A program made the position numbers and the translations under genes. Positions 5,571-41,881 of a DNA stretch of 64,000 nucleotides are shown here, piece after piece (positions within the stretch are counted from its first letter, which is position 1; the number at the start of each line of letters is the position of its first letter). The notes beneath the pieces were generated by a model. That model worked only from the letters and a program-made list of their open reading frames with translations, was not told the origin of the DNA and made no database searches. The DNA is from a virus. Lineage: Duplodnaviria > Heunggongvirae > Uroviricota > Caudoviricetes. The stretch lies in IMG/VR virus record IMGVR_UViG_3300046500_000231, positions 10,070 to 74,069 of that record, one strand, 5' to 3'.

Positions 5571-6201
5571 AGTCCACCTTGATCTTTTCCCGGTAACGCT
5601 TTTCTATATAGACGTCCGGCGCTAAATCTTCTTTCAAATCAGGATGAGTCGTCGCAACAATTAGCGTGGCGCCCACCTTCCGAGCAACCTTGGCGATGTT
5701 GAATGCCACCACGCGCGCAGTTACGCGATCCAGAACCGCGAGGAACTCGTCGGCGACCCAGACCTTCACGCCGCTCTCGATGAGCTTGGCAAGGCGAAAG
5801 CGGTAGCGCTGCCCGTCGGACAGTTCGCTCGGCTTGCGAATGAAGAGGTAGGCGTCGTTCAGGCCCGCAATCGAGAGCAGGCGCAGCGCGTCGTTGGTGT
5901 CGACGCCAATCTGATCGATGAGCGGGCAGTCCTTGAACTCCACATAGTCGATGTCAGCGACCGTGAGCGGCACGCCCGACTCCATCTTCGCCTTGAGCTC
6001 GCGCAGGACCGTGCTCTTGCCCGAGCCCGACTGGCCCGTGACATACACCACGTCGCCCTGCTTGATTTCGAGCGGCTGCTGGTCGAAGACGACGAACTCC
6101 TTGTCGTCCAGACCGAGACCAAAGGCTTCCGCGACTTCCAGCACCCGGTCGGAGCGCTCGACGCTGGCGGTGTAGCGCTTGTCGATGATGTAGGTCGTCA
6201 T
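5554..6201 (-). CDS. ABC-type ATPase (soluble, no TM domain)
   Basis: Walker A GQSGSGKST, ABC signature LSDGQRYRF, Walker B VWVADE. Confidence 0.75.
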   Translation of the reverse strand: MTTYIIDKRYTASVERSDRVLEVAEAFGLGLDDKEFVVFDQQPLEIKQGDVVYVTGQSGSGKSTVLRELKAKMESGVPLTVADIDYVEFKDCPLIDQIGVDTNDALRLLSIAGLNDAYLFIRKPSELSDGQRYRFRLAKLIESGVKVWVADEFLAVLDRVTARVVAFNIAKVARKVGATLIVATTHPDLKEDLAPDVYIEKRYREKIKVDYVGND

Positions 6202-6311
6202 GTCGAGAGCCCCAGCAAGAGTCCGGCAGCCAGAGCGGCGATGGTCCATGCAAGAGCATCGATCGCATGCACGGCCGAGTCATACGCCCGTTTGATCAGT
6301 TTTCTCGTCAT
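6198..6311 (-). CDS. small membrane protein (37 aa)
   Basis: MTRKLIKRAYDSAVHAIDALAWTIAALAAGLLLGLST. ATGA overlap with the upstream gene. Confidence 0.4.
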   Translation of the reverse strand: MTRKLIKRAYDSAVHAIDALAWTIAALAAGLLLGLST

Positions 6312-6817
6312 CAGGCGGCTCGCTGGTTGATCGACACCCACCAGGCCATCGCCTTGGGGTTGTCCTGCCAGAGTTGGCACAGGCCGTGAGCGCCCATCGT
6401 GGTGAAGTCTTCCTCTTCCGGACCATCGCCGAGCAGCCCGTAATGGAAGTGAATCGCGTGCAGCACCTCGTGGATGAAGGTGTCGGCCAAGTTCTGCGCG
6501 TTCTGATCCGGCGCCAGGCGAATCGTCTGGTTGATCGGGTTCATGTGGCCGAAGCTCATCGAGGCTTGACTGTCGCCCGAGTCCTGCACCGACACCGCGA
6601 AGCGGAAGTTGCCGATCTTCAGCGAACTCGGCACGCCCACATACGGGTCGAAGGGCTTCACTCGCTGAGCACCGCGACGAGCAGCGCCACCGCGAGGAGC
6701 TCGTCCTCGCTGAGTCCGCTCAACGGGCTTGACGGCTTCGAGCAGATCCAGGCCGTCGCCGCTATCGCCATGCCGACCAGCACCATCACGATGATCGCTG
6801 TCATGTCCATATTTCAT
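6311..6817 (-). CDS. HExxH zinc-metallopeptidase-like protein
   Basis: FIHEVLHAIHFH motif. Basic, low-complexity N-terminus. Confidence 0.5.
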   Translation of the reverse strand: MKYGHDSDHRDGAGRHGDSGDGLDLLEAVKPVERTQRGRAPRGGAARRGAQRVKPFDPYVGVPSSLKIGNFRFAVSVQDSGDSQASMSFGHMNPINQTIRLAPDQNAQNLADTFIHEVLHAIHFHYGLLGDGPEEEDFTTMGAHGLCQLWQDNPKAMAWWVSINQRAA

Positions 6818-6834
6818 AGTCAATTCTGAGTGGT
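6817..6834. promoter_or_regulatory. conserved phage motif copy (TAGTCAATTCTGAGTGGT)
   Basis: Variant of the genome-wide motif. Overlaps the start codon context ATGACTATGAAA. Confidence 0.45.
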
Positions 6835-6841
6835 ATTTAGG

Positions 6842-7483
6842 TTATGCGCAGACAGCCTTGGCGTGAGCCACAAAAGCGTCTGCGCCCGTGAGTCCGGTCT
6901 GTTCTTCGATCAGCGCCATGAACCGCGCGAGGTGCTTTTCATCGCGCCCCGCCACCGCTTTGAAGCCCAGCGCCTTTTCGAGCTTCACTTCCCGCGCGTC
7001 GGTCTTCTCGACCGTTTTGGCGGTCTCTGCAGCCTGCTCGCGCACTTCTGCGTCCAGATCCTCCACGAACGGTTCGTCGTTGATGACCGACAAGTCCGCC
7101 GTCATGAAGTCGAGCTCCTTGGCGTCGAAGATGCTGCCGAGGTCAAAGTCGAGACTGGCGAGTTCTTCCTGCAGGATGCGCGCGTCGATCTCGGAGAGCG
7201 CAACCCTGTTATCGGCCAGGCGCAGCGCCCGCGCCTGCTCTTTGGTGAGGTCATCGCGCACCACCACCGGCACGTGGGTCTGACCGAGCGAGAGCGCGGC
7301 AAGACGCCGGCCGTGGCCTGCGATGATGGTGCCGTCGGCTTCCGCGACGATCGCCGTGTTCCAGCCGAACTCCGTGATCGAGGCGGCGATCTTCTTGATC
7401 TGCGCCTCGTCGTGGGTCTTGGCGTTCAGTTCATACGGCTTGAGCCACTCGACGGGCTTGAGCGTGGGTTTGAATTCGTTCAT
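6842..7483 (-). CDS. ParB-like nuclease domain protein
   Basis: IIAGHGRRLAA ParB N-terminal-domain motif. Confidence 0.7.
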   Translation of the reverse strand: MNEFKPTLKPVEWLKPYELNAKTHDEAQIKKIAASITEFGWNTAIVAEADGTIIAGHGRRLAALSLGQTHVPVVVRDDLTKEQARALRLADNRVALSEIDARILQEELASLDFDLGSIFDAKELDFMTADLSVINDEPFVEDLDAEVREQAAETAKTVEKTDAREVKLEKALGFKAVAGRDEKHLARFMALIEEQTGLTGADAFVAHAKAVCA

Positions 7484-7668
7484 GCGGCTTCCAGCCAGAT
7501 CGGTTCGTGGTCTTCTTCGCCCTTATCGAGCGCGGTGAGCTTGCGCAGGTCTTCGTCGTAGCCGTCGTCCTCGCCGTTGTGCTCGTAGTTCGAGCCCTCG
7601 TCACAGGTGCGGCACTGGAAGGGGTCGTATTCCAGGTTCAGGCAGGTTCGGCAGAAGGCAAACTTCAT
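7480..7668 (-). CDS. small zinc-finger protein
   Basis: CRTC...CRTC Cys pairs. Start choice uncertain. Confidence 0.35.
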   Translation of the reverse strand: MKFAFCRTCLNLEYDPFQCRTCDEGSNYEHNGEDDGYDEDLRKLTALDKGEEDHEPIWLEAA

Positions 7669-7672
7669 AGCG

Positions 7673-8080
7673 TCAAACCGTGATCCAGTCATCGGCGAAA
7701 ATCTCGCTCTGCGTCGGCGCATACACGCGCGGCTCATCGCCCTCGCGCGTCAGCACAATGCGTCCGTTCTGCACGCTCAAGGTGCTCAGGCTCCAGCCAA
7801 CGCGCTTGACCCGCAGACCGTGCTTGATCGCCTCGAGCGCCATGCTGAAGCTCAGCCCGACCGCCTTGCGATAGGCCGCGTCAAAGACGTCCTTGGGGCT
7901 CCACGAGACGTAGCCCGCATGCTTCGCGTGATTCGATGCGCCGCCATCCATGTATTCGACGAGATAGCCGGCGTCGAGCGGGTCTTCGTTTGCCGGAACC
8001 GTCCAGCCGCGATAGTCGTTGTATTCGCCGCGTGTCATGGGCTTGGCGAAAATGACTTTGGTGCCGATGTATCGAATCAT
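7673..8080 (-). CDS. DUF2829-domain protein (Tad2-like) with conserved N-terminal YIGTK domain
   Basis: C-terminal half LSFSMALEAIKHGLRVKRVGW...PTQSEIFADDWITV fits the DUF2829 consensus. N-terminal half YIGTK...PMTR..YNDYRGW...GYLVEY...WSPKDVF. Confidence 0.6.
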   Translation of the reverse strand: MIRYIGTKVIFAKPMTRGEYNDYRGWTVPANEDPLDAGYLVEYMDGGASNHAKHAGYVSWSPKDVFDAAYRKAVGLSFSMALEAIKHGLRVKRVGWSLSTLSVQNGRIVLTREGDEPRVYAPTQSEIFADDWITV

Positions 8081-8730
8081 GATTTCGGGGAGAGAAGGTG
8101 AACGAGCGCTGCGCCCGCGTTGGAAAGCGAGTCGTCTTCGGTGAAGCGCTGCGCCTTCATGGTCTTTTCGATCAGGTCCGTGATGGCGCCGACGTCCTCG
8201 ACGGGCACCTTGAAGCGCATGATCTGGTGCGTCTGCACCACGGCTTCCTTGGGTAACGGGGTTGGGGCCGCGTCATCGTCCGGTATATCTAAGTCATCCA
8301 GTTCTATATTTACGGATGAAAAGATTGAAGCGAAGTCGGCGTCCGTGTAGGGCAAGAAAGTCGACAGGTCTTCCGGCGTGCTCATGCCCTCGAGCAACTC
8401 GGCCAAGCGAAGCGTGTCGTCGTTGCCATAGCGGGCGTTATCCACCAGGCCGATCTCTTTGGCCTTGTTGTCGTCGATTGCGCCCACGTTCATCACGGGC
8501 ACTTTGTCCAGACCGAGGCGGATTGCAGCGTCGCGTCGATGCGCGCCACCGAGGATCTGATAGCTGCCGTCGGCGAGCGTGCGCACGATGATCGGCTTGA
8601 ACATGCCGAGGCGCTTCAGAGACGCCTCGATCTTGGCCTCCTCCTCCGGGCTGCACACGTTGGTGTTCCACGGATTGGGCTTGAGAGCGGAAGGCGACAG
8701 TTCGAGGGTTTCGATGTGGGGCTTACCCAT
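8077..8730 (-). CDS. ParB-like nuclease domain protein
   Basis: LKPNPWNTN and ILGGAHRRDAAIRLG motifs. Confidence 0.7.
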   Translation of the reverse strand: MGKPHIETLELSPSALKPNPWNTNVCSPEEEAKIEASLKRLGMFKPIIVRTLADGSYQILGGAHRRDAAIRLGLDKVPVMNVGAIDDNKAKEIGLVDNARYGNDDTLRLAELLEGMSTPEDLSTFLPYTDADFASIFSSVNIELDDLDIPDDDAAPTPLPKEAVVQTHQIMRFKVPVEDVGAITDLIEKTMKAQRFTEDDSLSNAGAALVHLLSPKS

Positions 8731-8750
8731 AGATTCCAGGCGTGGTTAAT

Positions 8751-8768
8751 TAGTCAGGACTGACTGTT
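8751..8768. promoter_or_regulatory. conserved phage motif copy (TAGTCAGGACTGACTGTT) in divergent region
   Basis: 15 bp upstream of the minus-strand gene start at 8730. 45 bp upstream of the plus-strand helicase. Confidence 0.5.
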
Positions 8769-8796
8769 GGCCTTATACTACGCCTAACACAACAGG

Positions 8797-10368
8797 ATGG
8801 CAACTCGGAACATGGCTACGATCACCCTCGCCTACAACGCGACCACCGCAAAGCTCGTGGAGACCGACCGGGCGCTCAAATTGGAAGTGCAGAAGCTCGT
8901 CTCCTACAAGGTCTCGGGCGCCGAGAACACCCTGCCCTTCAAAACGGGCGGCTGGGACGGCCGCAGCTCCTTCTTCGACTTCCGCAAAGGCACCTTCCCC
9001 GCCGGCTTCGTGCATTTCGTGGCCGCAGGCCTGCGCCGAGCCGGGCACACCGTGCGCTTTGTCGCCAAAGAGGCGCCCGCACCGCTTGGGCCCCTCAACC
9101 CGAAGATCGACAGCTTCCCGGAAGACCCCCGCTACGACTACCAGATGGAGACGGTCAACCGGCTGGTGAAGCACCGCCAGATCATTGCCCAGTTGGCAAC
9201 CGGGGCCGGGAAGTCACGGGTTGCGCGTCTCGCCTTCGCCCGTATCCGCCGCCCGACGCTCTTTCTCACGACCCGCTCGATCCTCATGTATCAGATGAAA
9301 GACGCGTTCGAGGAGCTGGGAGTGAAGTGCTCGGTGCTGGGCGACGGACAGTTCGGAACGGTCACAGTCGGTGCCGACGGTGAAGAACGACACTCGGTGA
9401 AGATGATGAGCGTTGGCATGGTTCAGACGCTCGTAGCGCGTCTTGCCGAACCGTGCCCGGACGATGACGTCGAGAAACAAAACGAGCAAATCCGCATTCG
9501 CAACAAGACGATCGCGCTCCTGGAGAAATTCGAGTTCGTGATCGGTGAGGAGGCACACGAGGCGAGCGGCAATAGCTACTTTGAGATCCTCAAGCACTGC
9601 AAGAACGCGCACTACCGCCTGGCGCTCACCGCCACGCCCTTCATGAAGGACGATGAGGAATCGAACATGCGGCTCATGGCCGCGTTCGGCCCGATCGGCA
9701 TCAAGGTGAGCGAGAAGATGCTGATCGACCGCGGCATCTACGCCAAGCCGTTCTTCAAGTTCATCCAGCTCGAGCACAAGCCCGCCAAACTCTTTCGCGG
9801 CACGACCTGGCAGGCCGCCTACCGGATCGGCATCGTCGACAACGTGGAACGCAACGCCAAGATCGTGTTCGAGGCGCGTCGCGGGGCGGCGCTCAAGCAG
9901 CCGGTGATGATTCTTGTGCAGCAGACGCGGCACGGTGAGCTTTTGCGGGAGCAACTGGCGGCCAAAGGCGTGCGCGTGGAGTTCCTGCAGGGCGAGAACA
10001 ACGCAAAGGAGCGAAAAGCGGCGCTGGGGCGACTTCGGCAGCGCGAAACCGAGGTGCTGATCGGCACGACCATCATGGACGTCGGTGTGGACGTGCCGGC
10101 GATCGGGCTGGTGATTCTCGCCGGCGGTGGGAAGGCGCAAGTGGCGCTACGTCAGCGCATTGGCCGCGGTGCGCGCGAGAAGAAGAAAGGCCCGAACTGC
10201 TTTTTCGTGGTCGACTTCGACGATCCGTGGAATTCCCACACGAAAGAGCACGCTTTGGCGCGCCGTGCGATCGTGGAATCGACGCCGGGCTTTGTCGAAA
10301 ACATCCTCCCGCCGGGCAAGGACTTCGATTTCGTGGGCCTGGGCTTTGCGACTCGCAAGGCAGCGTGA
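8797..10368 (+). CDS. SF2 DEAD/DEAH-box family helicase
   Basis: Walker A ATGAGKS, DEAH-like GEEAHE, helicase C-terminal motifs (TAT, QRIGRGAR). Confidence 0.8.
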   Translation: MATRNMATITLAYNATTAKLVETDRALKLEVQKLVSYKVSGAENTLPFKTGGWDGRSSFFDFRKGTFPAGFVHFVAAGLRRAGHTVRFVAKEAPAPLGPLNPKIDSFPEDPRYDYQMETVNRLVKHRQIIAQLATGAGKSRVARLAFARIRRPTLFLTTRSILMYQMKDAFEELGVKCSVLGDGQFGTVTVGADGEERHSVKMMSVGMVQTLVARLAEPCPDDDVEKQNEQIRIRNKTIALLEKFEFVIGEEAHEASGNSYFEILKHCKNAHYRLALTATPFMKDDEESNMRLMAAFGPIGIKVSEKMLIDRGIYAKPFFKFIQLEHKPAKLFRGTTWQAAYRIGIVDNVERNAKIVFEARRGAALKQPVMILVQQTRHGELLREQLAAKGVRVEFLQGENNAKERKAALGRLRQRETEVLIGTTIMDVGVDVPAIGLVILAGGGKAQVALRQRIGRGAREKKKGPNCFFVVDFDDPWNSHTKEHALARRAIVESTPGFVENILPPGKDFDFVGLGFATRKAA

Positions 10369-10409
10369 ATCATGGTATTTTGACCGTCACTACTGACTAA
10401 GGAGCGCCC

Positions 10410-10595
10410 ATGAAGCACGCCCTGTTTCTGAACCTCATGATTCTCGCGCTCATTCTCGCCGTGGTGTGGGTGACTGGCCGCGGTGAGCCCCTGATTGCGC
10501 TCGTTTTGCTGCGCGATATGCCTTTCGGGTTGCTCATGCAGCAGCCGCCCGAGGAGGACGACGACCCCAAGATCGGCTTCACCGCCGAGGTCTGA
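10410..10595 (+). CDS. small membrane protein
   Basis: AAGGAG RBS. One TM segment, acidic tail. Confidence 0.5.
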   Translation: MKHALFLNLMILALILAVVWVTGRGEPLIALVLLRDMPFGLLMQQPPEEDDDPKIGFTAEV

Positions 10596-10596
10596 A

Positions 10597-10632
10597 AAGA
10601 GCCCCGCTAACCACGCGGGGCTTTTTCTTTGC
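10597..10632 (+). terminator. rho-independent terminator (plus strand)
   Basis: AGCCCCGC...GCGGGGCT stem followed by TTTTTCTTT. Confidence 0.7.
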
Positions 10633-10696
10633 ACGTCAGTTCTGATTGGGCGCTATAATCCGCGTGTATTTATTTTATTTCACGCAAGGAAAGAAC

Positions 10697-10972
10697 ATGA
10701 CAACCACCGCTGACACGAAGCGCTACACCCTCATCATCGGAGCCGAGCAGCAGCAAAAGCTCGCCGCAATGGCCAAAGATAATGGCATCAGCCAGGCCGA
10801 CGTGATCGAGGTGCTGGTCGAGCAGGCCGACGAGGCGAAGCTCAAGAAGGCCTTCGCCACCAAGAAGGAATCGAAGGTCGAGACGCGCGGGCGCAAGAAG
10901 GATCTCACCAAGATGATCGAGGCGCTCTCACCGGAAGAACGCGCCGCGCTGATGGCGAAGCTGCAGGGATGA
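10697..10972 (+). CDS. hypothetical protein
   Basis: 91 aa. Preceded by a TATAAT box (~10653) and AAGGA RBS. Confidence 0.5.
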   Translation: MTTTADTKRYTLIIGAEQQQKLAAMAKDNGISQADVIEVLVEQADEAKLKKAFATKKESKVETRGRKKDLTKMIEALSPEERAALMAKLQG

Positions 10973-11349
10973 CCCGGCTACTCGTCTGTGGTGGGCGAGA
11001 TTTCGAGGATCAGCAGTTCACCGATTGGGCGATGGATGCGATACACGCACGGCGCCCAATTTCATTGCTGATCGAAGGAGGCGCTCGAGGTGGCGATCGG
11101 TGCGCTCGGACGTGGGCTGAGAAGCGCGGCATTCCGGTGAGAACGTTCGAGGCGGACTGGAAGCACTACCGTCACCGCGCCGGCCCCATTCGAAATCAGC
11201 AGATGCTCGACGAGGGGCATCCCGAGCTCGTGGCGGCGCTCCCAGGCGGCAAGGGCACGACCGACATGGTGATGAAGGCTCGCGCAGCCGGGGTGCGCGT
11301 CATCACCCTCTGGAGCCATTACGAGCGTTACAGGTTGGCGTTCAGATAG
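10969..11349 (+). CDS. SLOG-fold DUF2493-like protein
   Basis: LLVCGGRDFED...LLIEGGARGGD signature. ATGA-coupled to the upstream gene. Confidence 0.6.
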   Translation: MTRLLVCGGRDFEDQQFTDWAMDAIHARRPISLLIEGGARGGDRCARTWAEKRGIPVRTFEADWKHYRHRAGPIRNQQMLDEGHPELVAALPGGKGTTDMVMKARAAGVRVITLWSHYERYRLAFR

Positions 11350-11789
11350 CCCCGGAACTTCGTCTGGGGCAGCATCACCTTCGTCGCACAGTCCGCATAC
11401 GCGGGCCCTGGCGTGCCGTCGCTCTGATACATGTTGCGGCACAGCGCATCCAGCGTAATCACCATCCCTCCTCCCGCTGTCGGCACCCGTCGCGCAAAGA
11501 AGCCCACCATCCCCGTGTTGGGCGGCGTGAAGGTGTCGATCGCCGCCGCATCCATCTCTCGCACGCGGGTGTCCGAGTTCGCCTCGACGTAGTTGCGCGT
11601 GAGCAGCCACGCCCGATCACAGGTGGTCGTGTCCGGGCAGGAGAAGGTTCCAGCGACGCGAGCCCGCGCCAGCACGTTTTCCAGGCGTTGCACGGCCTGA
11701 TCGTGTTCGGCTTGCTGCTCGGGCGTCATGGTGTTGCAGCCAGTGAGTGCGAGCGCAGCGAGCCCGATGGCGATGATGGTGTTGCGCAT
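11328..11789 (-). CDS. lipoprotein
   Basis: Signal peptide with LALTGC lipobox. Convergent with the plus-strand island. Confidence 0.6.
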   Translation of the reverse strand: MRNTIIAIGLAALALTGCNTMTPEQQAEHDQAVQRLENVLARARVAGTFSCPDTTTCDRAWLLTRNYVEANSDTRVREMDAAAIDTFTPPNTGMVGFFARRVPTAGGGMVITLDALCRNMYQSDGTPGPAYADCATKVMLPQTKFRGYLNANL

Positions 11790-11910
11790 GGTGTTGGGTC
11801 TCCCTCGAAATGATCGGAGGGATTATAGACAGCCCGGAAGGGCCGCCGAACGCGAAGTGTAAGGAAACGACACCCGTGCCTGCGAGCAGGTAGTCACTGG
11901 CTCCCTATAT

Positions 11911-11930
11911 TCAGTCATTATTGACTGTGT
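11911..11930. promoter_or_regulatory. motif variant (TCAGTCATTATTGACTGTGT)
   Basis: Upstream of the plus-strand HNH gene. Confidence 0.4.
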
Positions 11931-11942
11931 AGCGGGGATGCA

Positions 11943-12470
11943 ATGACGGAAGAATGGCGTAATGTCGTAGGTTTTGAAGGACTTTATCAGGTGTCGGACC
12001 TCGGACGCGTGAAGCGCCTCGATCACCATAGAGACGGTCGGCATCTGTGCGAGAAGATTTTGAAGGCCACGCCAACCGGCGATGGTCATCTGCAGGTCGG
12101 TCTGGGTGCGGACGGCGCCAAGGTGCGCAAATTCACAGTCCATTCTCTCGTGCTGCTCGCGTTCGTCGGACCTCGCCCCTTTGGGGCGCAGGGCCGGCAT
12201 CTGGACGACGACCCAGCAAATAATCGGCTGGACAACTTGGCATGGGGAACGCCCAAAGACAACGCGGCGGATCGGGGCAAGAATAATCCTGGATACCATC
12301 GCTCCCCATCGCGGCGTTTGGAGATTGCGGAGGCGATCAGTCTGCAGCCAGATATGAGCTACGCTGAAATGGCGGAGTTGGGAGAGCGATTCGGGGTGTG
12401 TGCGAAGACCGTCAGGCGGACTCGGGACGCGTGGCAAGCTGGAAAGATCAGCTTGGGCGCCAAAGTATAA
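11943..12470 (+). CDS. HNH homing endonuclease (NUMOD4 + HNH_3)
   Basis: WRNVVGFEGLYQVSDLGRVKRL NUMOD4. HSLVLLAFVGPRP...DDDPANNRLDNLAWGTPKDN HNH. Confidence 0.8.
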   Translation: MTEEWRNVVGFEGLYQVSDLGRVKRLDHHRDGRHLCEKILKATPTGDGHLQVGLGADGAKVRKFTVHSLVLLAFVGPRPFGAQGRHLDDDPANNRLDNLAWGTPKDNAADRGKNNPGYHRSPSRRLEIAEAISLQPDMSYAEMAELGERFGVCAKTVRRTRDAWQAGKISLGAKV

Positions 12471-12592
12471 GGAAGTGCTCGGCCGGGATACCGGGAAATA
12501 TAAGGAAGGGTCATTTTCCTCATGGGCCGAGGAAGGCAGGGCCTTCGACGCGCGCGAGAATCTCTAGGAGATTGACTTCTCGCGCGGTCCCT

Positions 12593-12778
12593 CTACTGCA
12601 CGCGTCGCACGTTCACGCTCGCGACTGCACGCAGCGTCGCGTTCGTTTCTGCACGCTTGCGAATCTCGTTCAAGCGTCGCGCATAGTTGCGTTCGGTGCT
12701 TTCGATCAGATACGCGACAGAACCGAAAGCGAGAATTGCAGAGACGATAGCGAAAAGAGAGAACGGTTCGAAGTGCAT
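12593..12778 (-). CDS. small membrane protein
   Basis: 61 aa, one TM segment. Confidence 0.35.
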   Translation of the reverse strand: MHFEPFSLFAIVSAILAFGSVAYLIESTERNYARRLNEIRKRAETNATLRAVASVNVRRVQ

Positions 12779-12787
12779 GTTTTATCT

Positions 12788-12805
12788 CAGTCAGTTTTGA
12801 CTGTT
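12788..12805. promoter_or_regulatory. conserved phage motif copy (CAGTCAGTTTTGACTGTT) abutting parS
   Basis: Exact core motif. Its 3' end overlaps the parS site. Confidence 0.6.
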
Positions 12806-12817
12806 TCACGTGAAACA
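12802..12817. promoter_or_regulatory. parS site (TGTTTCACGTGAAACA)
   Basis: 16/16 match to the canonical ParB-binding parS palindrome. Confidence 0.75.
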
Positions 12818-12873
12818 GTCATGCGGTTAGAAACGTGCGTGCTACAGAGAGAATACTAGCACGTATTTTAAAG

Positions 12874-12887
12874 CAACGTGCAAGTAT
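12874..12887. repeat. left arm of island-flanking inverted repeat (AACGTGCAAGTATT)
   Basis: Reverse complement found at 14592-14605. Confidence 0.5.
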
Positions 12888-13058
12888 TTTCGTTCACGTA
12901 AGCGTAGCACTTCTGTTCGAACGTGAAACCGTGACCGTGAACAATGCGAGTAACGATGATATACATGATTAGACTTGATTAGAGACGTTTTGAGCGATTC
13001 TCTCTCTGTGCGGTGCGTCTGAGAGTGCAGCGCGCACAGAGAGACGGTTAGAGACGGT

Positions 13059-13592
13059 TTAAGCGATGCAGTGTTTCAGATTGTCGCGTTCGTCATCGTA
13101 GAATTGACCGTCGAATTGCTGCATATGCAAGTCACGCAGCATTGCGAGCGTTTCACGCTGCACGCGTTCGTCATCGCTCAGAAGCAACGAAAGCAAGTCA
13201 AGCGAGATAGTCAGATTACCGTGTGTAGCAGAATCCGCAGTCTCAATGTTAGTCACGCGTGCATCGAACGTTGCTTCGTTGTCATCGTTGATACTGACAG
13301 TCGAAGCAATGTATTTAACGTTGATTGCGCTATCGTGCGCGCGTGCTTTCAGAGTGTCGATACATACGGACCGAAACACGCTTTCGCACGTCTGCGACGG
13401 ACTATCAGCGCTTTCGTATTCTGCAATCATGACAAGTGCAGAGCGACGCACCGCTTCTGACAACGACAAGTCAGAATGTCGATACAGTTCGCTTTGTTCG
13501 TTCTCGCTAAACGCGATGCACTCATACGAACCGCGTTCGTTCGTTTCGATAATGACGGTCAAATCGTCATCGGTGATTTTCGAGATTTGCAT
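13059..13592 (-). CDS. acidic hypothetical protein (low-GC island)
   Basis: 177 aa. Lower-GC codon usage than the surrounding genome. Confidence 0.45.
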   Translation of the reverse strand: MQISKITDDDLTVIIETNERGSYECIAFSENEQSELYRHSDLSLSEAVRRSALVMIAEYESADSPSQTCESVFRSVCIDTLKARAHDSAINVKYIASTVSINDDNEATFDARVTNIETADSATHGNLTISLDLLSLLLSDDERVQRETLAMLRDLHMQQFDGQFYDDERDNLKHCIA

Positions 13593-13622
13593 GATAAACC
13601 GTGTGTGAGTGTGATTAGTGAG

Positions 13623-13638
13623 TGTTTCACGTGAAACA
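13623..13638. promoter_or_regulatory. parS site (TGTTTCACGTGAAACA)
   Basis: Second perfect canonical parS, followed by a half motif TTGACTGTT. Confidence 0.75.
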
Positions 13639-13659
13639 CTCACTATTGACTGTTACGCG

Positions 13660-14469
13660 TTAGACTGCTTTAAACATCGCTTGCACCGCTTGTGCAGCTT
13701 TCGAGTCAGTGAGCGTCATCGAGTCATCTTTGCGCGACTTGATGACGTTGCAGACGTTCAGAAAGCGCATTGCTTGACGCGTGCTACTCGCTTGCGTGCT
13801 CGCGGTTGACGGTTCACACAGCTTGAACGAGCGCACCGCTTGACTTTGCATGTCTTCCGTGAATACGACTTTGTTAGACAACGAGATTTGAGAACCGCGG
13901 TTCGACAACGATTCGAGTTTGACGAGATTGCGCATAATCGCTTGCGTATAACCGTCGAAAACCGACGTCATACCGGTTGCGAGCGCAAACAGCGATTTGC
14001 GCACTTTCTGTGCAGCGTAAATCGCAATGTAGTCATACGAGTTTTTATCTGTCGTTGCATATGCACGTGCAAGCGCGTCAAAATCAACTTCAAGCGCGAT
14101 GCACTTCTCGATAGCGAGCATTGCATTCGTTCCGCTGAGCGCGCGCAATTCTGCGTGCATGTTCTTTGCAAAGTTCGCGTTCGGTGCATGTTCGATTCGA
14201 ACCGCGATAGCATCGCAAAGTTGCTTTTGCGCTTCTGCTGCTTGCTCGCGCAGCGTCTTTGCGCTTGCTTCTGCGTTTTCAAGCTCTTTCGCTGCTGCTT
14301 CGCGCGCTGCTGCTTCTGCTGCTTCTGCTTCTGCTTTGCGCGCTGCTGCTGCTTCTGCTTTCGCTGCGTCATTCTGAGCACGCGACGCTTTGCGACGCGC
14401 TTCTTTCTGCGCTGCTTTAGCTGCTGCGTTCAGTTCGTTTGCTGCGTTCGTGTTAGCTGCGTTCGTCAT
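13660..14469 (-). CDS. Ala/Glu-rich coiled-coil protein (KfrA-like?)
   Basis: N-terminal AEAAAARKAEAEAAEAAAREAAAKELE coiled-coil. Sits in the low-GC island next to the parS sites. Confidence 0.4.
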   Translation of the reverse strand: MTNAANTNAANELNAAAKAAQKEARRKASRAQNDAAKAEAAAARKAEAEAAEAAAREAAAKELENAEASAKTLREQAAEAQKQLCDAIAVRIEHAPNANFAKNMHAELRALSGTNAMLAIEKCIALEVDFDALARAYATTDKNSYDYIAIYAAQKVRKSLFALATGMTSVFDGYTQAIMRNLVKLESLSNRGSQISLSNKVVFTEDMQSQAVRSFKLCEPSTASTQASSTRQAMRFLNVCNVIKSRKDDSMTLTDSKAAQAVQAMFKAV

Positions 14470-14591
14470 TTTTCTTTCTCTCTAGTGTGTGTCTCGCTTG
14501 CACTGTGCAGCGAGTGATTGAATTATGCACGTCTTATTTCTCACGTGCAATGTTTTTCTACGTGCAGGTTTAGAGTGCATTCTCTAAAAAG

Positions 14592-16622: not shown

Positions 16623-16640
16623 TAGTCAGTGGTGACTGTT
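16623..16640. promoter_or_regulatory. motif copy (TAGTCAGTGGTGACTGTT)
   Basis: In the non-coding repeat region downstream of the GYGEVW cluster. Confidence 0.5.
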
Positions 16641-16764: not shown

Positions 16765-17073
16765 CTACCACACCTCCCCATACCCCTGAGCGTGATCCTT
16801 CTGCGCATCTTCATCAGCCAGCAGCCTCTTCCGTAGCGTCTTGAGTGGGCTCTCGAACTGGAGATCCCAGATATCCAGCTCCTTGAATCCCGCTCCCTGC
16901 AGTCCGACGATCGAGTCTCCTGCCTTGAGGGTGTTGCGGATCGTCTCGTATCTGTGGGCTAGGTCAGTTTCTTGGATCCAGCCGGTGCCAGTGTCTCCCG
17001 TGCTCTCGCTCTTTACGGTGACGGGGTATCGGCCGGCGCTGCTTTTCTCGCCTATGATCTTGAACTGCGCCAT
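16765..17073 (-). CDS. GYGEVW-tail family protein (paralogue 3)
   Basis: Ends ...AQGYGEVW. Confidence 0.5.
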   Translation of the reverse strand: MAQFKIIGEKSSAGRYPVTVKSESTGDTGTGWIQETDLAHRYETIRNTLKAGDSIVGLQGAGFKELDIWDLQFESPLKTLRKRLLADEDAQKDHAQGYGEVW

Positions 17074-17361
17074 CTACCAGACCTCCCCGTATCCCTGCAC
17101 CTGGTCCTTCCCGCTGTCGAGCTTCCCTGGTCTGCCCATCCCCACGAAGCTGGTTTTGATCCTCTCCAGCGGGTAGTCTGGAAAGGACGTGCCGAGCATC
17201 GCCTTGACCGGATTGTCGTAGCCTTCGAATCCGTATCGTATGGCTACGTCCTCGGTTAGCGCGTAGCCTTCCTTGACCAGTGCGCTGCCGTGTTCCCAGT
17301 AGATGACCCTGAGCCAGTCCTCGCTCACAGCGCCGTCGATCTTGATTGTTGCCATCACCAC
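17074..17361 (-). CDS. GYGEVW-tail family protein (paralogue 2)
   Basis: Ends ...VQGYGEVW. Confidence 0.5.
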   Translation of the reverse strand: MVMATIKIDGAVSEDWLRVIYWEHGSALVKEGYALTEDVAIRYGFEGYDNPVKAMLGTSFPDYPLERIKTSFVGMGRPGKLDSGKDQVQGYGEVW

Positions 17362-17597
17362 ACCTCTCCATATCCGGTCGCTTCGTCCTTCTCGGTGTAG
17401 GGTGTGTCGTCAGGGCCGGTCAGGGCGAACTTGAGCCATTCGTGATCGAAGTTCCCGAGAAGCTGACCTGCCTCAATCGGTGCCGGATATTTGCTCTGGA
17501 GCCAGGTTGCCGGCATGGTGTGTTGCTCGTGCGTCTTGGCGATGTGAATGGTGATCCAGGAGTCGGTGACTTCCAAGACCTCTACGTCGATTAGCAT
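17355..17597 (-). CDS. GYGEVW-tail family protein (paralogue 1)
   Basis: Ends ...ATGYGEVW. Confidence 0.5.
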   Translation of the reverse strand: MLIDVEVLEVTDSWITIHIAKTHEQHTMPATWLQSKYPAPIEAGQLLGNFDHEWLKFALTGPDDTPYTEKDEATGYGEVW

Positions 17598-22301: not shown

Positions 22302-22655
22302 CTACCAACCACCACCGGGGGTGACAGGCGTGTCCTTGAACCCGAGTCGCTTCTTCTCGGCCTGATACTCCTCGTCGGACTTCAGGAGACTCGGGGCAAC
22401 GCGCCAAGTGTTGCGCATCCGATCGCCCTTCGCGTCCACCTGCGTGCAGTTGATGCTCTTGGCGTTGATCTTGTCGATCACGACATGCACGAGTTGGCCG
22501 TATTTCGACACGAACATCGCCCGCTGCCCGATGCGGAACTTCGATCCGGCCGCCACCTGCGTTTGCGTCTGACGGTGGCGAAGAATGCTGACGATGGCGT
22601 TGTTCATGTCGCGCAGCGTGTCGGTGGAGAGTGCGTTCAGTTTCGAGAGGTCCAT
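22302..22655 (-). CDS. hypothetical protein
   Basis: Start MDLSKLNALSTD. Confidence 0.45.
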   Translation of the reverse strand: MDLSKLNALSTDTLRDMNNAIVSILRHRQTQTQVAAGSKFRIGQRAMFVSKYGQLVHVVIDKINAKSINCTQVDAKGDRMRNTWRVAPSLLKSDEEYQAEKKRLGFKDTPVTPGGGW

Positions 22656-22748
22656 GTCCAAGTCCTGAATGAATGTGGTGGTCAATCTGGAAAGCGCACG
22701 CACGGGTGCGCTTTGCGGATTGGAGGGGCGCGAAGCCCCTCGCCCGAG

Positions 22749-24109: not shown

Positions 24110-24283
24110 GTTTCAGACGGTCGAATTGAGCCTTGCGACTATGCGAGCGGCGATCTTGAGCGCTTCCGTGCGTGTCATGTCGGGATGATCGGCCTGCAGA
24201 TCGTTCGCCATGCGCGCCTCTTCCTGAATACGCTCGTCGCGCTCTCGGTCGAGGCGGTTCGTGAACGTGTCCTGAATCACCAC
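24110..24283 (-). CDS. small protein (57 aa, below the track cutoff)
   Basis: GTG start in a GTGA overlap. VIQDTFTNRLDRERDERIQEEARMANDLQ... Confidence 0.3.
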
Positions 24284-24738
24284 GCTCCCACCTCGTCGTC
24301 GGTGTCGGTCGTCGGCTTGTTCGGATCAGGAGGCTTGGGTGGCTCGACCGGCTTCAGGGTGTTGCCAACCTCAACCAGCACCTCCTCGCCCGTCTCGAGA
24401 TCCACCTCCAGCTCGCTCTCGGTCCACTTGGCGATGAACGTGGTGTAGAAATCCACCGCCGCGCGCTCGTTGCAGAACGTCTTGCCGTCGTCCACCGGGT
24501 CAGCGCGCAACGTGCCGTCGCTCGCGTAGTTGTGGACCATCAGCATGAAAAGCGGCCACGTGTCGGGGAAGCTCGCGTGCGGGTTCGGCACGCGCCCCAT
24601 CCATTCGAGGATCACCCGCACCTTGCCGTTGTCGAACTGCTTGACGAGGGCGTAGCTCTCGTCTTGCCGATACGTCTTCCACTGCGCGAGCGGGATTGAA
24701 TTGCCGTCGCGGTCGAAATAGCCGATCTTGACTGCCAT
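24277..24738 (-). CDS. hypothetical protein
   Basis: Start MAVKIGYFDRDG. Confidence 0.45.
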   Translation of the reverse strand: MAVKIGYFDRDGNSIPLAQWKTYRQDESYALVKQFDNGKVRVILEWMGRVPNPHASFPDTWPLFMLMVHNYASDGTLRADPVDDGKTFCNERAAVDFYTTFIAKWTESELEVDLETGEEVLVEVGNTLKPVEPPKPPDPNKPTTDTDDEVGAW

Positions 24739-24739
24739 G

Positions 24740-25027
24740 TCATTGCTCCTTTTCGTAAGCGGCGAGCTTGGCTTGGAGCTCGCCGATGAGTTCGTAGGCC
24801 TGCACGCGCTCAATCGGCATGTCAGGGCGTTCTTTCAGAATCCGGGCCCGCTCGACCTCGCGTGCGTGGTTGGCCTTCCAGTGCGTGACTTCGGCCTGCA
24901 GCGCGATGATTTCGTCCATTGCCGTTGCCAGCAGGCGGCGTGAACTGTCCTCGAGCCCTTCTCGGCCGATGCGGCTAATGATCTGACGCACTAGTTCGTC
25001 CTGACGCGTCTCTCCCTTCTTGGTCAT
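24740..25027 (-). CDS. hypothetical protein
   Basis: Start MTKKGETRQDE. Confidence 0.45.
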   Translation of the reverse strand: MTKKGETRQDELVRQIISRIGREGLEDSSRRLLATAMDEIIALQAEVTHWKANHAREVERARILKERPDMPIERVQAYELIGELQAKLAAYEKEQ

Positions 25028-25601: not shown

Positions 25602-25815
25602 CGACGATCTCCTTCATGAGCCGCACCGCCTCGTCAAAGGACGGCGCTTCGGTTTTGTGGGGTCCGAGCACGACTTCGAAGAAGCGGCCCTTGCAGGTGT
25701 GGCGAATCTGGCGCTCCTCCACCGCGTCGGCATACCAGCGCCAGAGCTCGGCGTCGGCCTTGTTGGCGTTGGCGCGTGCGGTGAGGCGAATTGTGTCGAG
25801 GTGGGTGGCGTTCAC
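25579..25815 (-). CDS. hypothetical protein
   Basis: 78-aa ORF. Confidence 0.4.
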   Translation of the reverse strand: MNATHLDTIRLTARANANKADAELWRWYADAVEERQIRHTCKGRFFEVVLGPHKTEAPSFDEAVRLMKEIVDAQRLAA

Positions 25816-26102
25816 CAGATCACCTCCGCGGTTTCGACGGCATCAGCCTCGACGTAGACCTTGCGGTCGGTGGGTTGGTAGTGCTCGGATGGGCCGGCAA
25901 AGGCCTTGTGATACGTCACCTTCTCCCACACCTGCAGAACCACAACGAGTCCGTCGACCCGCTCCACTGCGCCGTGAATCTCCTGACCCGAGCGCGTGAC
26001 GATGTGGAGCGTGTAGGCGTTACCGTCGTCCCGTGAGGCGTGCTCGGCGTCTGCGATGGCGTAACGAAGCGCGCTCATTGGCCGCTCACCGGGAAGTGCC
26101 AC
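25812..26102 (-). CDS. hypothetical protein
   Basis: 96-aa ORF. Confidence 0.4.
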   Translation of the reverse strand: MALPGERPMSALRYAIADAEHASRDDGNAYTLHIVTRSGQEIHGAVERVDGLVVVLQVWEKVTYHKAFAGPSEHYQPTDRKVYVEADAVETAEVIW

Positions 26103-33540: not shown

Positions 33541-33954
33541 TCAGGGTTTTTGCTGGGAATCGTCGCTCCCGCTCATGCTTGCCAGATACTTGCCGTGATC
33601 GAACGCCTTTTTCATGGCGCGCAACTGGGCGAGCGTGGGCTTGTCCTTCGAGTCGTGCCAGGAGATTGCCGACAGCCACGAACGGAGACGAGTCTCGTCG
33701 CGCGAATCCTTCACCTTCTGCGTGATTGGCTCGATGCTGCCGTTGACCGCGCCCACGAAGTAGCCCGTCTCCCGGTTGACGCGATGCTCGTTTCCGTTCG
33801 CATCTGTCAGGACGAACTGCGTGCGCGTCAGGCGATCGACCGTGAACAGCACATAACCGTGGTGACGCGTTCGGTGCGCGACTTCCTGGCCGGGCCGAAG
33901 CGACTTCAGCCACTCGGCGCGTTCTTCTCTCTCATCCATCACCAACTCCCCCAT
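33541..33954 (-). CDS. hypothetical protein
   Basis: 137-aa ORF. Confidence 0.45.
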   Translation of the reverse strand: MGELVMDEREERAEWLKSLRPGQEVAHRTRHHGYVLFTVDRLTRTQFVLTDANGNEHRVNRETGYFVGAVNGSIEPITQKVKDSRDETRLRSWLSAISWHDSKDKPTLAQLRAMKKAFDHGKYLASMSGSDDSQQKP

Positions 33955-34466
33955 TGTTCGTGTGCGACAGTTGCGCCGCTTCGCTTGGCGTATTCGTCGG
34001 CTGATAGCGACCGTGCCTGCGCCTTCAGGTTTTCACGCAACTCCCGATCCCCCGCCGATTCGTTCAGCACCATGTTCGCGGGCGTGAAGCTGCCAACAAA
34101 GCACGGGTAATAGTCGTCGGTGTTGGACGTGCCAAACTCGATCACAACCTTGCCCGTCACCATGTCGACCAGCTCCACGACGTCATGGTTTTCGTTGGCA
34201 CACTTACGGCCGATCACCTTCACCGGCGCGAACGTATTCTTGATGCCCTTGCCGTCGGAGATAAAAATATCGCGCAACGACGAGCGATAGCCGTCACTCG
34301 GGTCCTCCATTGCCGTGTAGCACTGACCGTTCAGGATGAAGGAAAATGCGGTCGCATCTTCCTCACCCCTCCAACTGACACTTGTCAGCTTTTGCTCCTC
34401 GCTGCCGACGCCGGTGAGAACAAACGACTTCCCGATGAAGAAGTCGAAATCCACTGTCGTTTTCAT
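33939..34466 (-). CDS. hypothetical protein
   Basis: 175-aa ORF. Confidence 0.45.
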   Translation of the reverse strand: MKTTVDFDFFIGKSFVLTGVGSEEQKLTSVSWRGEEDATAFSFILNGQCYTAMEDPSDGYRSSLRDIFISDGKGIKNTFAPVKVIGRKCANENHDVVELVDMVTGKVVIEFGTSNTDDYYPCFVGSFTPANMVLNESAGDRELRENLKAQARSLSADEYAKRSGATVAHEQWGSW

Positions 34467-41841: not shown

Positions 41842-41860
41842 TGCTTTCTCCAGGGAAAAC

Positions 41861-41881
41861 TCCCCGCACGTGGCGGGGAGA
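41861..41881. promoter_or_regulatory. 8-bp GC stem-loop (CTCCCCGC-ACGTG-GCGGGGAG) between motif and RBS
   Basis: Perfect inverted repeat in the 5' leader. Confidence 0.45.

Follow-up and report, generated by a model that had tools for sequence, protein, structure and literature searches.

Phage genes of the YAcAr/DUF2493 family have been described mainly by prediction. The family belongs to the SLOG fold, and its describers predicted that its members use NAD-derived ligands of the NAD/ADP-ribose type (PMC7824862). The SLOG protein YpsA depends for its function on the GxD/E motif, a predicted substrate-binding element (PMC6459960). The family has also been found joined to replication proteins: HelB of phage ICP1 carries DUF2493 fused C-terminally to an SF1B helicase (10.1101/671271), and the helicase operator DciA of Streptomyces is fused to DUF2493/YAcAr (10.1101/2022.01.24.477630). 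Literature searches on DUF2493, YAcAr and DprA-like phage proteins brought up predictions and fusions only, with no experiments on the stand-alone protein.

A stand-alone member of this family was found as the last of four plus-strand genes in a 64,000-nucleotide stretch of phage DNA, referred to here as the window. The four genes are judged to be an ordinary new instance of known gene kinds. The segment is probably a conserved plus-strand arm that starts at a divergent control region between a ParB-like gene and a helicase gene in a clade of roughly 110-kb siphoviruses, and the arm probably comprises two transcription units, TU1 and TU2 (Table 1). TU1 is shown by its genes, its terminator and its synteny, and TU2 by a conserved -10 box, its gene order and its variable content.

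Table 1. Features of the plus-strand arm and its borders in the window
Feature	Position	Strand	Remarks
Divergent control region	8731-8796	.	between ParB-like gene (8077-8730, minus) and helicase
UvsW-like SF2 DNA helicase	8797-10368	+	523 aa; Pfam, PHROG and PDB matches, synteny
Palindrome copy, one mismatch	10385-10398	+	between helicase stop codon and p61 ribosome-binding site
p61, small membrane protein	10410-10595	+	61 aa; second and last gene of TU1
Rho-independent terminator ending TU1	10596-10632	+	hairpin and T-run, folding, position kept
TU2 promoter -10, C-TATAAT	10653-10659	+	enrichment and alignment
p91, probable CopG-like RHH DNA-binding regulator	10697-10972	+	91 aa; family profile matches
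YAcAr/DUF2493 SLOG-fold protein	10969-11349	+	126 aa; start overlaps p91 stop codon (ATGA)
Lipoprotein gene	11328-11789	-	153 aa; lipobox; bounds arm
Lipoprotein promoter, CTATAAT	11822-11828	-	own promoter

Phage genome and conservation of the arm

The window comes from a siphovirus of about 110 kb that is of the SSU5/nickie/RHEph10 kind. TerL at its left end is 58% identical to TerL of nickie, and two ParB-like genes, ABC-type ATPases, a DnaE-like polymerase, RNR and SbcC are encoded as well; its GC content is 60%. A near-identity DNA search with positions 6000-14000 against cultured phages returned no match, so the genomic context was drawn from relatives at the protein level. The order in which TerL and, further on, two ParB genes on one strand are followed by a divergent helicase gene is kept in six cultured relatives and across 77 of 80 loci. 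Rfam and tRNA scans across the region detected nothing. As a separate observation on the genome, many of its proteins end in tryptophan, which is perhaps more interesting than the four-gene arm.

The four open reading frames claimed in the preliminary description were recovered with exactly the coordinates given in Table 1. They are real genes, with GC3 of 0.73-0.85 and homologues for all four, and the independent JGI gene caller predicted the same four on three metagenome contigs. In a crude gene map of the window, 82 of 97 calls lie on the minus strand, in agreement with the view that the four genes run antiparallel to their surroundings; that they do so to everything around them was slightly overstated, because a further plus-strand ORF, for an HNH/NUMOD4 endonuclease (11943-12470), follows beyond the segment.

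This opposite strand, an internal terminator and promoter, and the homing endonuclease gene and lower-GC stretch directly downstream could be taken as signs of a recently acquired mobile island or moron. Such an origin is contradicted by synteny and is extremely unlikely. In 77 of 80 related loci, among them those of SSU5, nickie, RHEph10, BUCTxx99 and JGB6, the helicase gene diverges from a ParB-like gene, and the p91 family lies downstream of the helicase in 54 of 78. The order helicase, p61, p91, cargo and SLOG extends across relatives whose helicases are 50-95% identical and to a Paraburkholderia MAG contig, and the entire layout is kept in five loci (L007-L010 and L085). Composition is that of the rest of the genome (GC 0.59-0.62, GC3 as above), a clade-specific palindrome is common to the segment and the rest of the genome, and repeats, an integrase or a tRNA flanking the segment were looked for with none found. 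The idea of a single acquired four-gene module was therefore given up; syntenic homologues in a comparison of gene neighborhoods, which the preliminary description had itself named as speaking against its reading, exist for the helicase. Its related proposal, an accessory module rather than core machinery, fails for the helicase and p91, which form conserved backbone, and survives for TU2, where the promoter of its own, the RHH gene, the variable cargo and the SLOG gene suggest the behavior of an accessory operon.

The palindrome AGTCA-N4-TGACT is a regulatory element common to TU1, where it precedes both the helicase and the p61 gene, and to other intergenic regions. An exact copy at 8752-8765 is located inside the control region, along with weak promoter-like scanner matches on both strands (plus, 8751-8779; minus, 8803-8775), and at least 25 relatives carry a copy at the corresponding position. 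Before p61, exact copies stand in the same place in L008, L009 and L010. The palindrome is absent at the TU2 promoter. In this genome the clade-specific palindrome has 30 mostly intergenic sites, an observation perhaps more interesting than the arm itself.

First transcription unit: helicase, p61 and terminator

The assignment of the first gene as an SF2 helicase was borne out by Pfam matches to ResIII (1.8e-18) and Helicase_C (1.1e-13), and the core motifs I, II, III and VI can be read in the translation as GAGKS, EEAH, TATP and QRIGRGAR. The JGI start is the second ATG at 8812, giving 518 aa, while the ORF list starts at 8797. The protein matches phrog_16 (2.7e-86), the structure of T4 UvsW over residues 243-462 (2oca_A, E 1.4e-10) and XPB-like PDB proteins (4e-13), and is about 31% identical to Enterococcus phage helicases annotated as uvsW; the N-terminal domain UvsW_N (PF21241) was found at E 3.9e-4 with 21.2 bits, below the cut-off of 25.3. 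Homologues occur in 2560 phage records, and PADLOC reported generic SF2 similarity only. Judged from these matches, the helicase is UvsW-like, and it appears to be a backbone, replication-type gene and not island cargo. By analogy with T4 UvsW, it would remodel branched DNA and R-loops for recombination-dependent replication, working alongside the DnaE-type polymerase, the SbcC-like nuclease subunit and the ribonucleotide reductase of the phage.

The p61 gene, preceded by a strong Shine-Dalgarno sequence (AAGGAG), encodes one N-terminal transmembrane helix and a second hydrophobic stretch by hydropathy, which upholds the earlier reading as a small membrane protein. Its motifs are R(D/E)MP(F/Y)GLL, a run of acidic residues and, at the C-terminus, P(K/R)IGFTA(D/E)V. 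The family was found in 29 of 78 related loci, on the plus strand after the helicase and usually directly behind it, and it has no Pfam, PHROG, NCBIfam or PADLOC match.

A clean rho-independent terminator had been claimed at 10597-10632, and it was confirmed by two 12-nt arms (10596-10607 and 10615-10626) that are 92% complementary around a 7-nt loop, with the hairpin followed by TTTTTCTTT. The minimum free energy is -21.8 kcal/mol (z = -3.8), a value matched by 1 of 200 shuffles; a generic scanner did not list the hairpin. In about ten relatives a hairpin and T-run followed by a TATAAT-like box lie between the p61 and p91 genes, with differing stem sequences, so that the terminator appears to be conserved in position and not in sequence. 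Transcription of TU1 would run through the helicase and then p61, and stop at this intrinsic terminator.

Second transcription unit: promoter, p91 and cargo slot

The TATAAT box placed near 10653, after the terminator, held up as well: the hexamer lies at 10654-10659 with a C before it at 10653. The window contains 6 copies of CTATAAT where 0.58 are expected, a count reached by 0 of 100 shuffles, and in a six-relative alignment of 61% mean identity the -10 box and the Shine-Dalgarno sequence are invariant columns. The best -35 picked out by eye, TTGCAC at 10629-10634 with a spacer of 19 nt, is weak, and the promoter scanner did not list the site; in L018 and L020, TTGAAC/TTGACT stands 16 nt from TATAAT. 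TU2 would be read from this host sigma70-type promoter.

The first gene of TU2 encodes p91, probably a CopG-like ribbon-helix-helix (RHH) DNA-binding regulator and, from its place in the related loci, apparently a conserved partner of the helicase. Its family profile matches Reg576 (6gyg, 2.2e-4), CopG (1b01, 3.8e-4) and MazE7 (7e-3), and weak matches were obtained to NCBIfam RepA/CopB (7.7e-5) and, all below cut-offs, to Pfam RepB-RCR_reg/ParG/RHH; PADLOC gave no match. The protein is built of 45 N-terminal residues, a basic linker and a C-terminal helix, and SSU5-type homologues have 92 aa. The AF2 monomer shows helices at 16-29 and 33-43 and no strand, but the model was unfit for fold search because its confidence is low (pLDDT 60). 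It was proposed that p91 represses its own TU2 promoter. No convincing operator for p91 was found. An ACGTG-type operator was considered and left as unproven: such motifs can be seen around the TU2 promoter in a few relatives, but the window shows no enrichment of CACGTG, with 32 copies where 24 are expected.

In relatives, a cargo slot of 0 to about four unrelated small genes follows the RHH gene and precedes the SLOG gene; other genes are inserted there in L016, L018, L019, L020, L022, L043 and L069. Across relatives TU2 is accordingly ordered as an RHH gene, a variable number of small genes and, in some of them, a SLOG gene in last position.

Sizes and order (a 91-aa RHH protein followed by one of 126 aa, the stop codon of the first gene overlapping the start of the second) would also fit a type II toxin-antitoxin or addiction pair in which the antitoxin precedes the toxin. 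The MazE7 antitoxin is a weak match to the p91 profile, and phage-plasmids are found among relatives of this phage group. Such a pair is very unlikely, though: about 40 loci have p91 but no SLOG, in several loci the two are kept apart by two to about four further genes, a p91-family neighbor was seen in 0 of 74 independent SLOG loci, and the SLOG family stands alone in hundreds of lytic phages.

The arm was said to end convergent with a lipoprotein gene, and this proved right: the lipobox LTGC is found at residues 15-18, and the gene overlaps the SLOG gene by 22 nt. The lipoprotein matches phrog_16082 (9e-8), and its gene is syntenic in L007-L012 and detected by HMM in 15 loci.

SLOG protein and its possible functions

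The SLOG (DUF2493) assignment was firmly supported by Pfam PF10686 (E 3.3e-21; 75.3 bits against a cut-off of 28.2) and by phrog_289 (E 2.4e-27). The predicted fold is of the Rossmann-like SLOG type, with glycine-rich loops and the GxD/E substrate motif. Across 42 sequences the invariant residues are C7-G-G-R10, G37-x-A39-x-G41-x-D43 and G93-x-x-G96-T97, placed after predicted strands 1, 2 and 4. Since this pattern is that of Rossmann-like ligand-binding folds, we infer that the protein binds or processes a nucleotide-derived small molecule, possibly of the NAD/ADP-ribose type predicted for the family.

Homologues were found in 976 of 50,697 phage records, about 2% of sequenced phages, as well as in an archaeal virus and giant eukaryotic viruses, with 50-60% identity conserved across phyla. 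The protein thus appears to be a common member of a pan-viral YAcAr family. In the clade itself it is present in 13-14 of about 80 related loci; its distribution is patchy, and identities within the clade are no higher than to unrelated phages, a pattern compatible with vertical descent as well as with repeated acquisition. In 73 independent viral loci, the 275 neighbors of SLOG genes fell into 251 clusters at 60% identity, with a largest similarity group of 6 and no fixed gene partner among them. The neighbors include DNA-metabolism genes (NinB, MT-A70 and three SF2 helicases, with terminase and RNR seen by eye only), and in cultured phages the gene sits in early or replication regions. SLOG may therefore be an early-expressed accessory function tied to DNA or nucleotide metabolism.

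One reading makes SLOG a minimal DprA-like DNA-transaction factor, which would bind ssDNA or load a recombinase or helicase and act with the UvsW-like helicase in recombination-dependent replication. Its place within the helicase arm in the SLOG-bearing relatives, the SF2 helicases, NinB and other recombination genes that are immediate neighbors elsewhere, the fusions in HelB and DciA, and the frequent database label 'DprA-like' favor it. It is nevertheless unlikely. The window protein has no DprA (PF02481) match at E <= 0.01, lacks the extra domains of DprA at 126 aa, and is predicted to be transcribed apart from the helicase, past a terminator; its invariant residues are glycine-rich loops typical of small-ligand pockets. 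A related SF2 helicase lies within 4 kb in only about 4 of 74 independent SLOG loci, and the link between SLOG and helicase seems to be a feature of this clade and not a general one. Fold comparison could not discriminate between SLOGs that sense ligands and the DprA branch, which binds ssDNA. The similarity to DprA is at the level of the fold only; a sequence search of the SLOG profile against solved structures found no homologue, giving only spurious BtuF matches. A different DprA-like SLOG in the same slot of L029 and L054 was considered and dropped, with an hhalign probability of 8% and a Pfam DprA E of 2e-3, below the cut-off.

A second reading takes TU2 for an anti-defense operon, in which SLOG sequesters or destroys an immune signal derived from NAD or a nucleotide, such as the cyclic ADP-ribose isomers of Thoeris, the RHH protein is an autorepressor like those associated with anti-CRISPRs, and the slot gathers counter-defense genes. 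The host-type promoter behind an upstream terminator, the variable small genes of the slot, the patchy SLOG distribution and signaling-type cargo nearby (in L043 an HD_4 protein directly after SLOG, in L069 a LuxR-type receptor) are consistent with it. A Pfam search also detected a Tad2-like domain in the neighboring gene 7673-8080 (minus), so counter-Thoeris functions may exist in the phage. Against this stand the absence of any PADLOC match for SLOG and of a Pfam Tad2-like or other anti-defense domain in SLOG, p61 or p91 (Tad1, Tad2 and Acb2 sponges were considered), cargo proteins that match no known anti-defense family, and the absence of a phenotype in the published literature; the identity kept across phyla and in archaeal and giant viruses is better explained by a universal metabolic or DNA-linked role. 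The anti-defense operon is thus improbable, and the defense or anti-defense role that the preliminary description had suggested is unsupported. A bolder version, with TU2 as a new kind of autoregulated counter-defense locus, in which a CopG-like repressor heads an early operon, a constant terminal SLOG binds or destroys NAD/ADP-ribose-derived immune signals and exchangeable counter-defense genes fill the slot, is more doubtful still.

Significance

A strand switch and a SLOG gene are not enough to define a defense island, and a tempting inference is corrected here. The conserved two-unit arm yields an evolutionarily supported operon map for an uncultivated phage clade, with a terminator, a promoter, a probable RHH regulator and a cargo slot, and gives the YAcAr/DUF2493 family a well-defined test case. 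Identifying the ligand of SLOG could allow the re-annotation of many viral genomes, and if the counter-defense reading were true, a first function would be given to this widespread phage family.

Comparison with known systems

The helicase shares the SF2 core (ResIII and Helicase_C) with T4 UvsW and matches 2oca in sequence, but UvsW_N remains below the Pfam threshold and identity to T4-type UvsW is low. Closer are the helicases of the SSU5, nickie, RHEph10 and BUCTxx99 types (e.g. SSU5_124), which are 43-52% identical and hold the same divergent position by ParB-like genes upstream of the terminase; these cultured relatives are without the small membrane protein, whereas here it is predicted to be co-transcribed with the helicase. 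The N-terminal 45 residues of p91 fit the strand-helix-helix pattern of CopG/Reg576/MazE-type RHH proteins, and its gene is first and directly behind the promoter as in CopG-type autoregulated operons; p91 is longer by about 45 residues, which form the basic linker and the C-terminal 'LTPEQ' helix.

For SLOG, the nearest counterparts are the stand-alone YAcAr/DUF2493 proteins (PF10686, PHROG 289) of the Rhodobacter phage RcIroh (gp63), the Pseudomonas phage Iggy (gp41) and the mycobacteriophage D29 (gp61), which are 44-57% identical over the whole protein and have the same length class, all invariant motifs and the same predicted fold. Variously labeled 'DprA-like', 'GTP-binding domain' or 'YspA cpYpsA-related SLOG', they are likewise encoded among early, replication or nucleotide-metabolism genes; elsewhere they are without a fixed partner, while here and in about 13 relatives the gene is terminal in an RHH-headed operon of a helicase arm. 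YpsA, the SLOG domain of ThsA (a 3'cADPR sensor), LOG phosphoribohydrolases, DprA and ShosA are only 9-22% identical; the window protein matches none of their Pfam or PADLOC models and has invariant AGPxRN and AxW motifs of its own. It reads PGGxGTxDM where LOG has the glutamate of PGGxGTxxE, and is without the extra domains of DprA and the SIR2 effector of ThsA. ICP1 HelB and DciA-YAcAr likewise connect this SLOG family with a helicase or a helicase operator. Those are single-polypeptide fusions involving other helicase classes, whereas in this arm the SLOG and SF2 helicase genes are distinct and belong to different units.

Proposed transcription units and gene content of the arm

The four plus-strand ORFs, together termed the arm, were found where the preliminary description had placed them, and they are regarded as real genes because their GC3 is 0.73-0.85 in sequence of 60% GC overall. 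The same four genes were predicted by the JGI gene caller on three metagenome contigs. In a crude gene map of the window, 82 of 97 calls are on the minus strand. For comparison, 80 related loci were used (six cultured phages and 74 IMG/VR loci, with helicase identity of 43-95%). Profile searches over all ORFs of the related loci gave a recurrent plus-strand order of helicase, p61 (a 61-aa membrane protein), p91, 0 to ~4 unrelated small genes, and the gene for the SLOG protein. The p61 family occurs in 29 loci, the p91 family (~90 aa) in 54 of 78, usually 90-600 nt after the helicase, and the SLOG gene in the arm of 13-14 loci; a layout identical to that of the window, including the convergent lipoprotein gene, was seen in L007-L010 and L085.

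The hairpin after p61 has an MFE of -21.8 kcal/mol (z = -3.8). In ~10 relatives the p61-p91 gap likewise contains a GC-rich hairpin and T-run, and TATAAT or a close variant of it lies 20-40 nt further on. The stem sequences vary among the relatives (AGCCCCGC, GGGTGCCC, CAGCCCGC, TGCCCGC and AAGCGCCC), and in a six-relative alignment with a mean identity of 61% the -10 box (CTAxAxT) and the Shine-Dalgarno sequence are invariant. Furthermore, CTATAAT occurs six times in the window versus 0.58 expected; a copy other than that of TU2 lies upstream of the lipoprotein gene. From the hairpin, the conserved -10 box and the CTATAAT enrichment, the arm is therefore read as two transcription units, in which helicase and p61 form TU1 and the genes from p91 to SLOG, with the cargo slot, form TU2. 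A generic promoter/terminator scanner listed neither the terminator nor the TATAAT box, so the reality of both rests on fold, motif statistics and conservation, which bear out what had been proposed for them. Gene content, synteny, terminator, conserved -10 box, variable cargo slot and SLOG fold are taken as demonstrated.

The arm was also correctly described as convergent with a lipoprotein gene, the two overlapping by 22 nt and the product carrying a lipobox. This gene has a plain CTATAAT promoter of its own and is syntenic in relatives, including L037-L045, whose arm consists of helicase and RHH (ribbon-helix-helix) genes only; its product, a stand-alone phage lipoprotein, might block receptors or serve in superinfection exclusion. 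Just past the arm, a NUMOD4 and HNH_3 homing endonuclease ORF represents a mobile insertion polymorphism, since L008 and L009 have it in the corresponding position and L007 and L010 lack it.

Features of the window and of related loci
Feature	Position	Strand	Remark
DUF2829 gene	7673-8080	-	135 aa, between two ParB-like genes
Palindrome, exact	8752-8765		ParB|helicase region
Helicase	8797-10368	+	TU1; JGI start at second ATG, 8812
Palindrome, one mismatch	10385-10398	+	just before p61 ribosome-binding site
p61	10410-10595	+	TU1
Terminator arms	10596-10607, 10615-10626	+	12 nt each, then T-run
TATAAT box	10654-10659	+	TU2 promoter
p91	10697-10972	+	TU2
SLOG	10969-11349	+	TU2, 126 aa
Lipoprotein	11328-11789	-	convergent with arm
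CTATAAT	11822-11828	-	lipoprotein gene promoter, no clade palindrome
Lower-GC stretch	11800-14500		50-55% GC
Homing endonuclease	11943-12470	+	inside lower-GC stretch
Palindrome examples	1993, 8752, 12789, 27316, 31420, 40531, 44511, 52941, 54896, 62774
Trp-ending genes	16765-17073, 17074-17361, 17355-17597, 22302-22703, 24277-24813, 25812-26102, 33939-34466, 40571-41869, 45572-46285, 51144-51497	-
L085	347740-368168		Paraburkholderia sp. GCA_047605525.1, contig JASGFN010000003.1; close relative, same arm layout
Long or split helicase ORFs	L055:4513-7155; L073 + L077:4573-7266; L013:5380-7536		also nickie-type phages
LuxR-type gene	L069:8216-8953	+	autoinducer-binding domain and GerE; between helicase and p61
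HD_4 gene	L043:9105-9680	+	RelA/SpoT-type HD; straight after SLOG gene

Phage identity and the helicase backbone

No nucleotide-level match of the window to cultured phages was found. Judged by its predicted proteins (TerL, ParB-like proteins, ATPases and replication genes), it belongs with the large siphoviruses SSU5, nickie, RHEph10 and BUCTxx99. Its left edge encodes a TerL that shares 58% identity with the nickie TerL and is followed by two ParB-like proteins and ABC-type ATPases, and a DnaE-type polymerase, a ribonucleotide reductase, an SbcC-like and a CobS-like protein are encoded further right on the minus strand. The host is probably a member of the Burkholderiaceae, because L085, whose SLOG protein is 77% identical to that of the window and whose gene layout is the same, sits on a 450-kb Paraburkholderia MAG contig. 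Its location inside a bacterial contig possibly reflects an integrated (temperate) state, the alternative being a binning or assembly chimera.

In six cultured relatives, TerL, a DNA-binding protein, ABC ATPases and two ParB genes read leftward in that order from the TerL end and the helicase reads away from them. The helicase was found in 80/80 related loci, with a ParB-like gene divergent from it in 77. It contains ResIII and Helicase_C domains, with UvsW_N below threshold, and matches PHROG 16 (E 2.7e-86) and the T4 UvsW structure (E 1.4e-10); homologues are present in 2560 phage records. Judged by the refuting criterion of the preliminary description, the helicase belongs to the syntenic backbone, as a gene of replication/recombination type, and its conserved position in the relatives contradicts the accessory role once assigned to it. 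It is rather likely that it would act like UvsW in recombination-dependent replication. In some relatives the ORF is far longer (~720-900 aa) or is matched in two pieces, and on an unrelated viral contig, a UvsW-type helicase encoded beside a SLOG gene contains an intein (Intein_splicing and Hint matches), so that inteins or other insertions appear to have targeted UvsW-type helicases repeatedly.

A clade palindrome and tryptophan-ending proteins

The palindrome AGTCA-N4-TGACT, first met on comparing CTATAAT sites, recurs across the window with the minus-strand consensus AACAGTCAAAACTGACT. At one mismatch or fewer, 30 sites were counted against 1.3 expected, a number reached in 0/100 shuffles, and 29 of them are intergenic. 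Asymmetry of the flanks orients the palindrome, and this orientation agrees with the downstream gene where checked. On the minus strand, TATAAT is fused to four of the copies, of which three precede genes of replication or nucleotide metabolism and the fourth is at 27316; the copy at 16624 occupies the spacer between the boxes of a TTGACG-17-TATGAT promoter. At least 25 relatives have the exact palindrome in the corresponding place between ParB and helicase. Of the 165 fetched loci, 52, every one from this clade, contain exact copies, which are absent from SSU5, nickie, RHEph10, BUCTxx99, JGB6 and unrelated SLOG loci. Probably, a regulator specific to the clade uses the palindrome as its operator or promoter element. 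No copy was found at the TU2 promoter; TU2 and the lipoprotein gene have plain host-type promoters instead. TU1 thus shares a clade-specific intergenic element with the rest of the genome, a further argument against an island. Together with helicase synteny and an arm composition matching the remainder of the genome, it speaks strongly against the arm being an acquired island.

Ten of the 95 predicted window proteins end in tryptophan, the overall frequency of which is 1.3%. The endings are usually G-x-W, with GYGEVW in three tandem paralogues; others are WGSW, FGSW, WGTW, GGGW, VGAW and, in the ribonucleotide reductase small subunit, ALEW. The same kind of C-terminal W is found on many unrelated cargo ORFs of relatives (L016, L024, L034, L056, L069 and L070), and possibly serves as a common motif for docking or tagging. 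Both the palindrome and this excess merit attention in their own right.

p61 and p91

In the p61 family, an N-terminal TM helix is joined by another hydrophobic segment, the motif R(D/E)MP(F/Y)GLL and a run of acidic residues, and P(K/R)IGFTA(D/E)V is conserved at the C-terminus. No match to the family was found in the Pfam, PHROG, NCBIfam and PADLOC profile libraries. Enterobacterial and Acinetobacter phage-plasmids of the SSU5 type encode 92-aa members of the p91 family after the helicase. The family profile matches the solved RHH proteins Reg576 (2.2e-4), CopG (3.8e-4) and MazE7 (7e-3), with weaker RepA/CopB, ParG and RHH matches below thresholds. AF2 yields a poor monomer model with a pLDDT of 60, best in the two helices at 16-29 and 33-43, as would be expected of a fold dependent on dimerization. 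That p91 is an RHH protein is quite probable; that it would repress TU2 as such is evenly balanced, autoregulation being proposed because of the position of its gene.

The SLOG protein and the question of defence

The protein is securely assigned to YAcAr/DUF2493, as initially described, by sequence (PF10686, 75 bits versus a cut-off of 28) and by an AF2 model with pLDDT 97; no solved structure of any member was detectable by sequence search. Identity is 50-60% between proteins of very different sources, and the motifs CGGR, GGAxGxD, AxW, AGPxRN and PGGxGT are invariant, three of them coming straight after predicted strands 1, 2 and 4. In Rossmann-like folds, the crevice after such strands is the usual ligand site. 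The family was found in 976 of 50,697 phage records; fold comparison adds a haloarchaeal virus and giant viruses, among them Pandoravirus and Marseillevirus. In other loci the gene has diverse neighbours (NinB, MT-A70, three different SF2 helicases by Pfam, and a recurring large protein that by eye resembles a terminase), and no fixed gene partner was found in these other loci. Where cultured phages carry the gene, it is surrounded by early genes or by genes for replication or nucleotide metabolism.

The minus-strand gene between the two ParB-like genes encodes a protein whose N-terminal region matches phrog_872 and whose C-terminal domain is Tad2-like/DUF2829 (Pfam E 3.8e-8). The Rhizobium phages encode a DUF2829 protein in the same gene cluster, and the product of the window gene is a candidate Thoeris signal sponge. 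An anti-defence role of TU2 would fit the nearby Tad2-like domain, the unit's own host-type promoter, its interchangeable cargo (in relatives, an HD_4 protein and a LuxR-type receptor among others) and the presence of ThsA-SLOG among the fold neighbours; it is nevertheless improbable, as no test in this analysis lends it support and the occurrence of SLOG across so many kinds of virus points to a role more universal than that. The pattern in which p91 and SLOG co-occur contradicts a toxin-antitoxin pair. The accessory module holds for TU2 only, the helicase with its RHH partner being backbone, and a defence or anti-defence reading is unsupported.

Tentatively, the SLOG protein may have an early accessory role in which it binds or processes a small molecule derived from nucleotides, and an action on ssDNA like that of DprA is unlikely. 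Literature on the family consists of predictions and fusions, no experiment on the stand-alone protein having been found. NAD- or ADP-ribose-related ligands were predicted for the family (PMC7824862) and for the YpsA clade (PMC6459960). As for fusions, HelB of ICP1 is an SF1B helicase with a DUF2493 domain at its C-terminus (10.1101/671271), and a YAcAr domain is present in some Streptomyces DciA proteins (10.1101/2022.01.24.477630).
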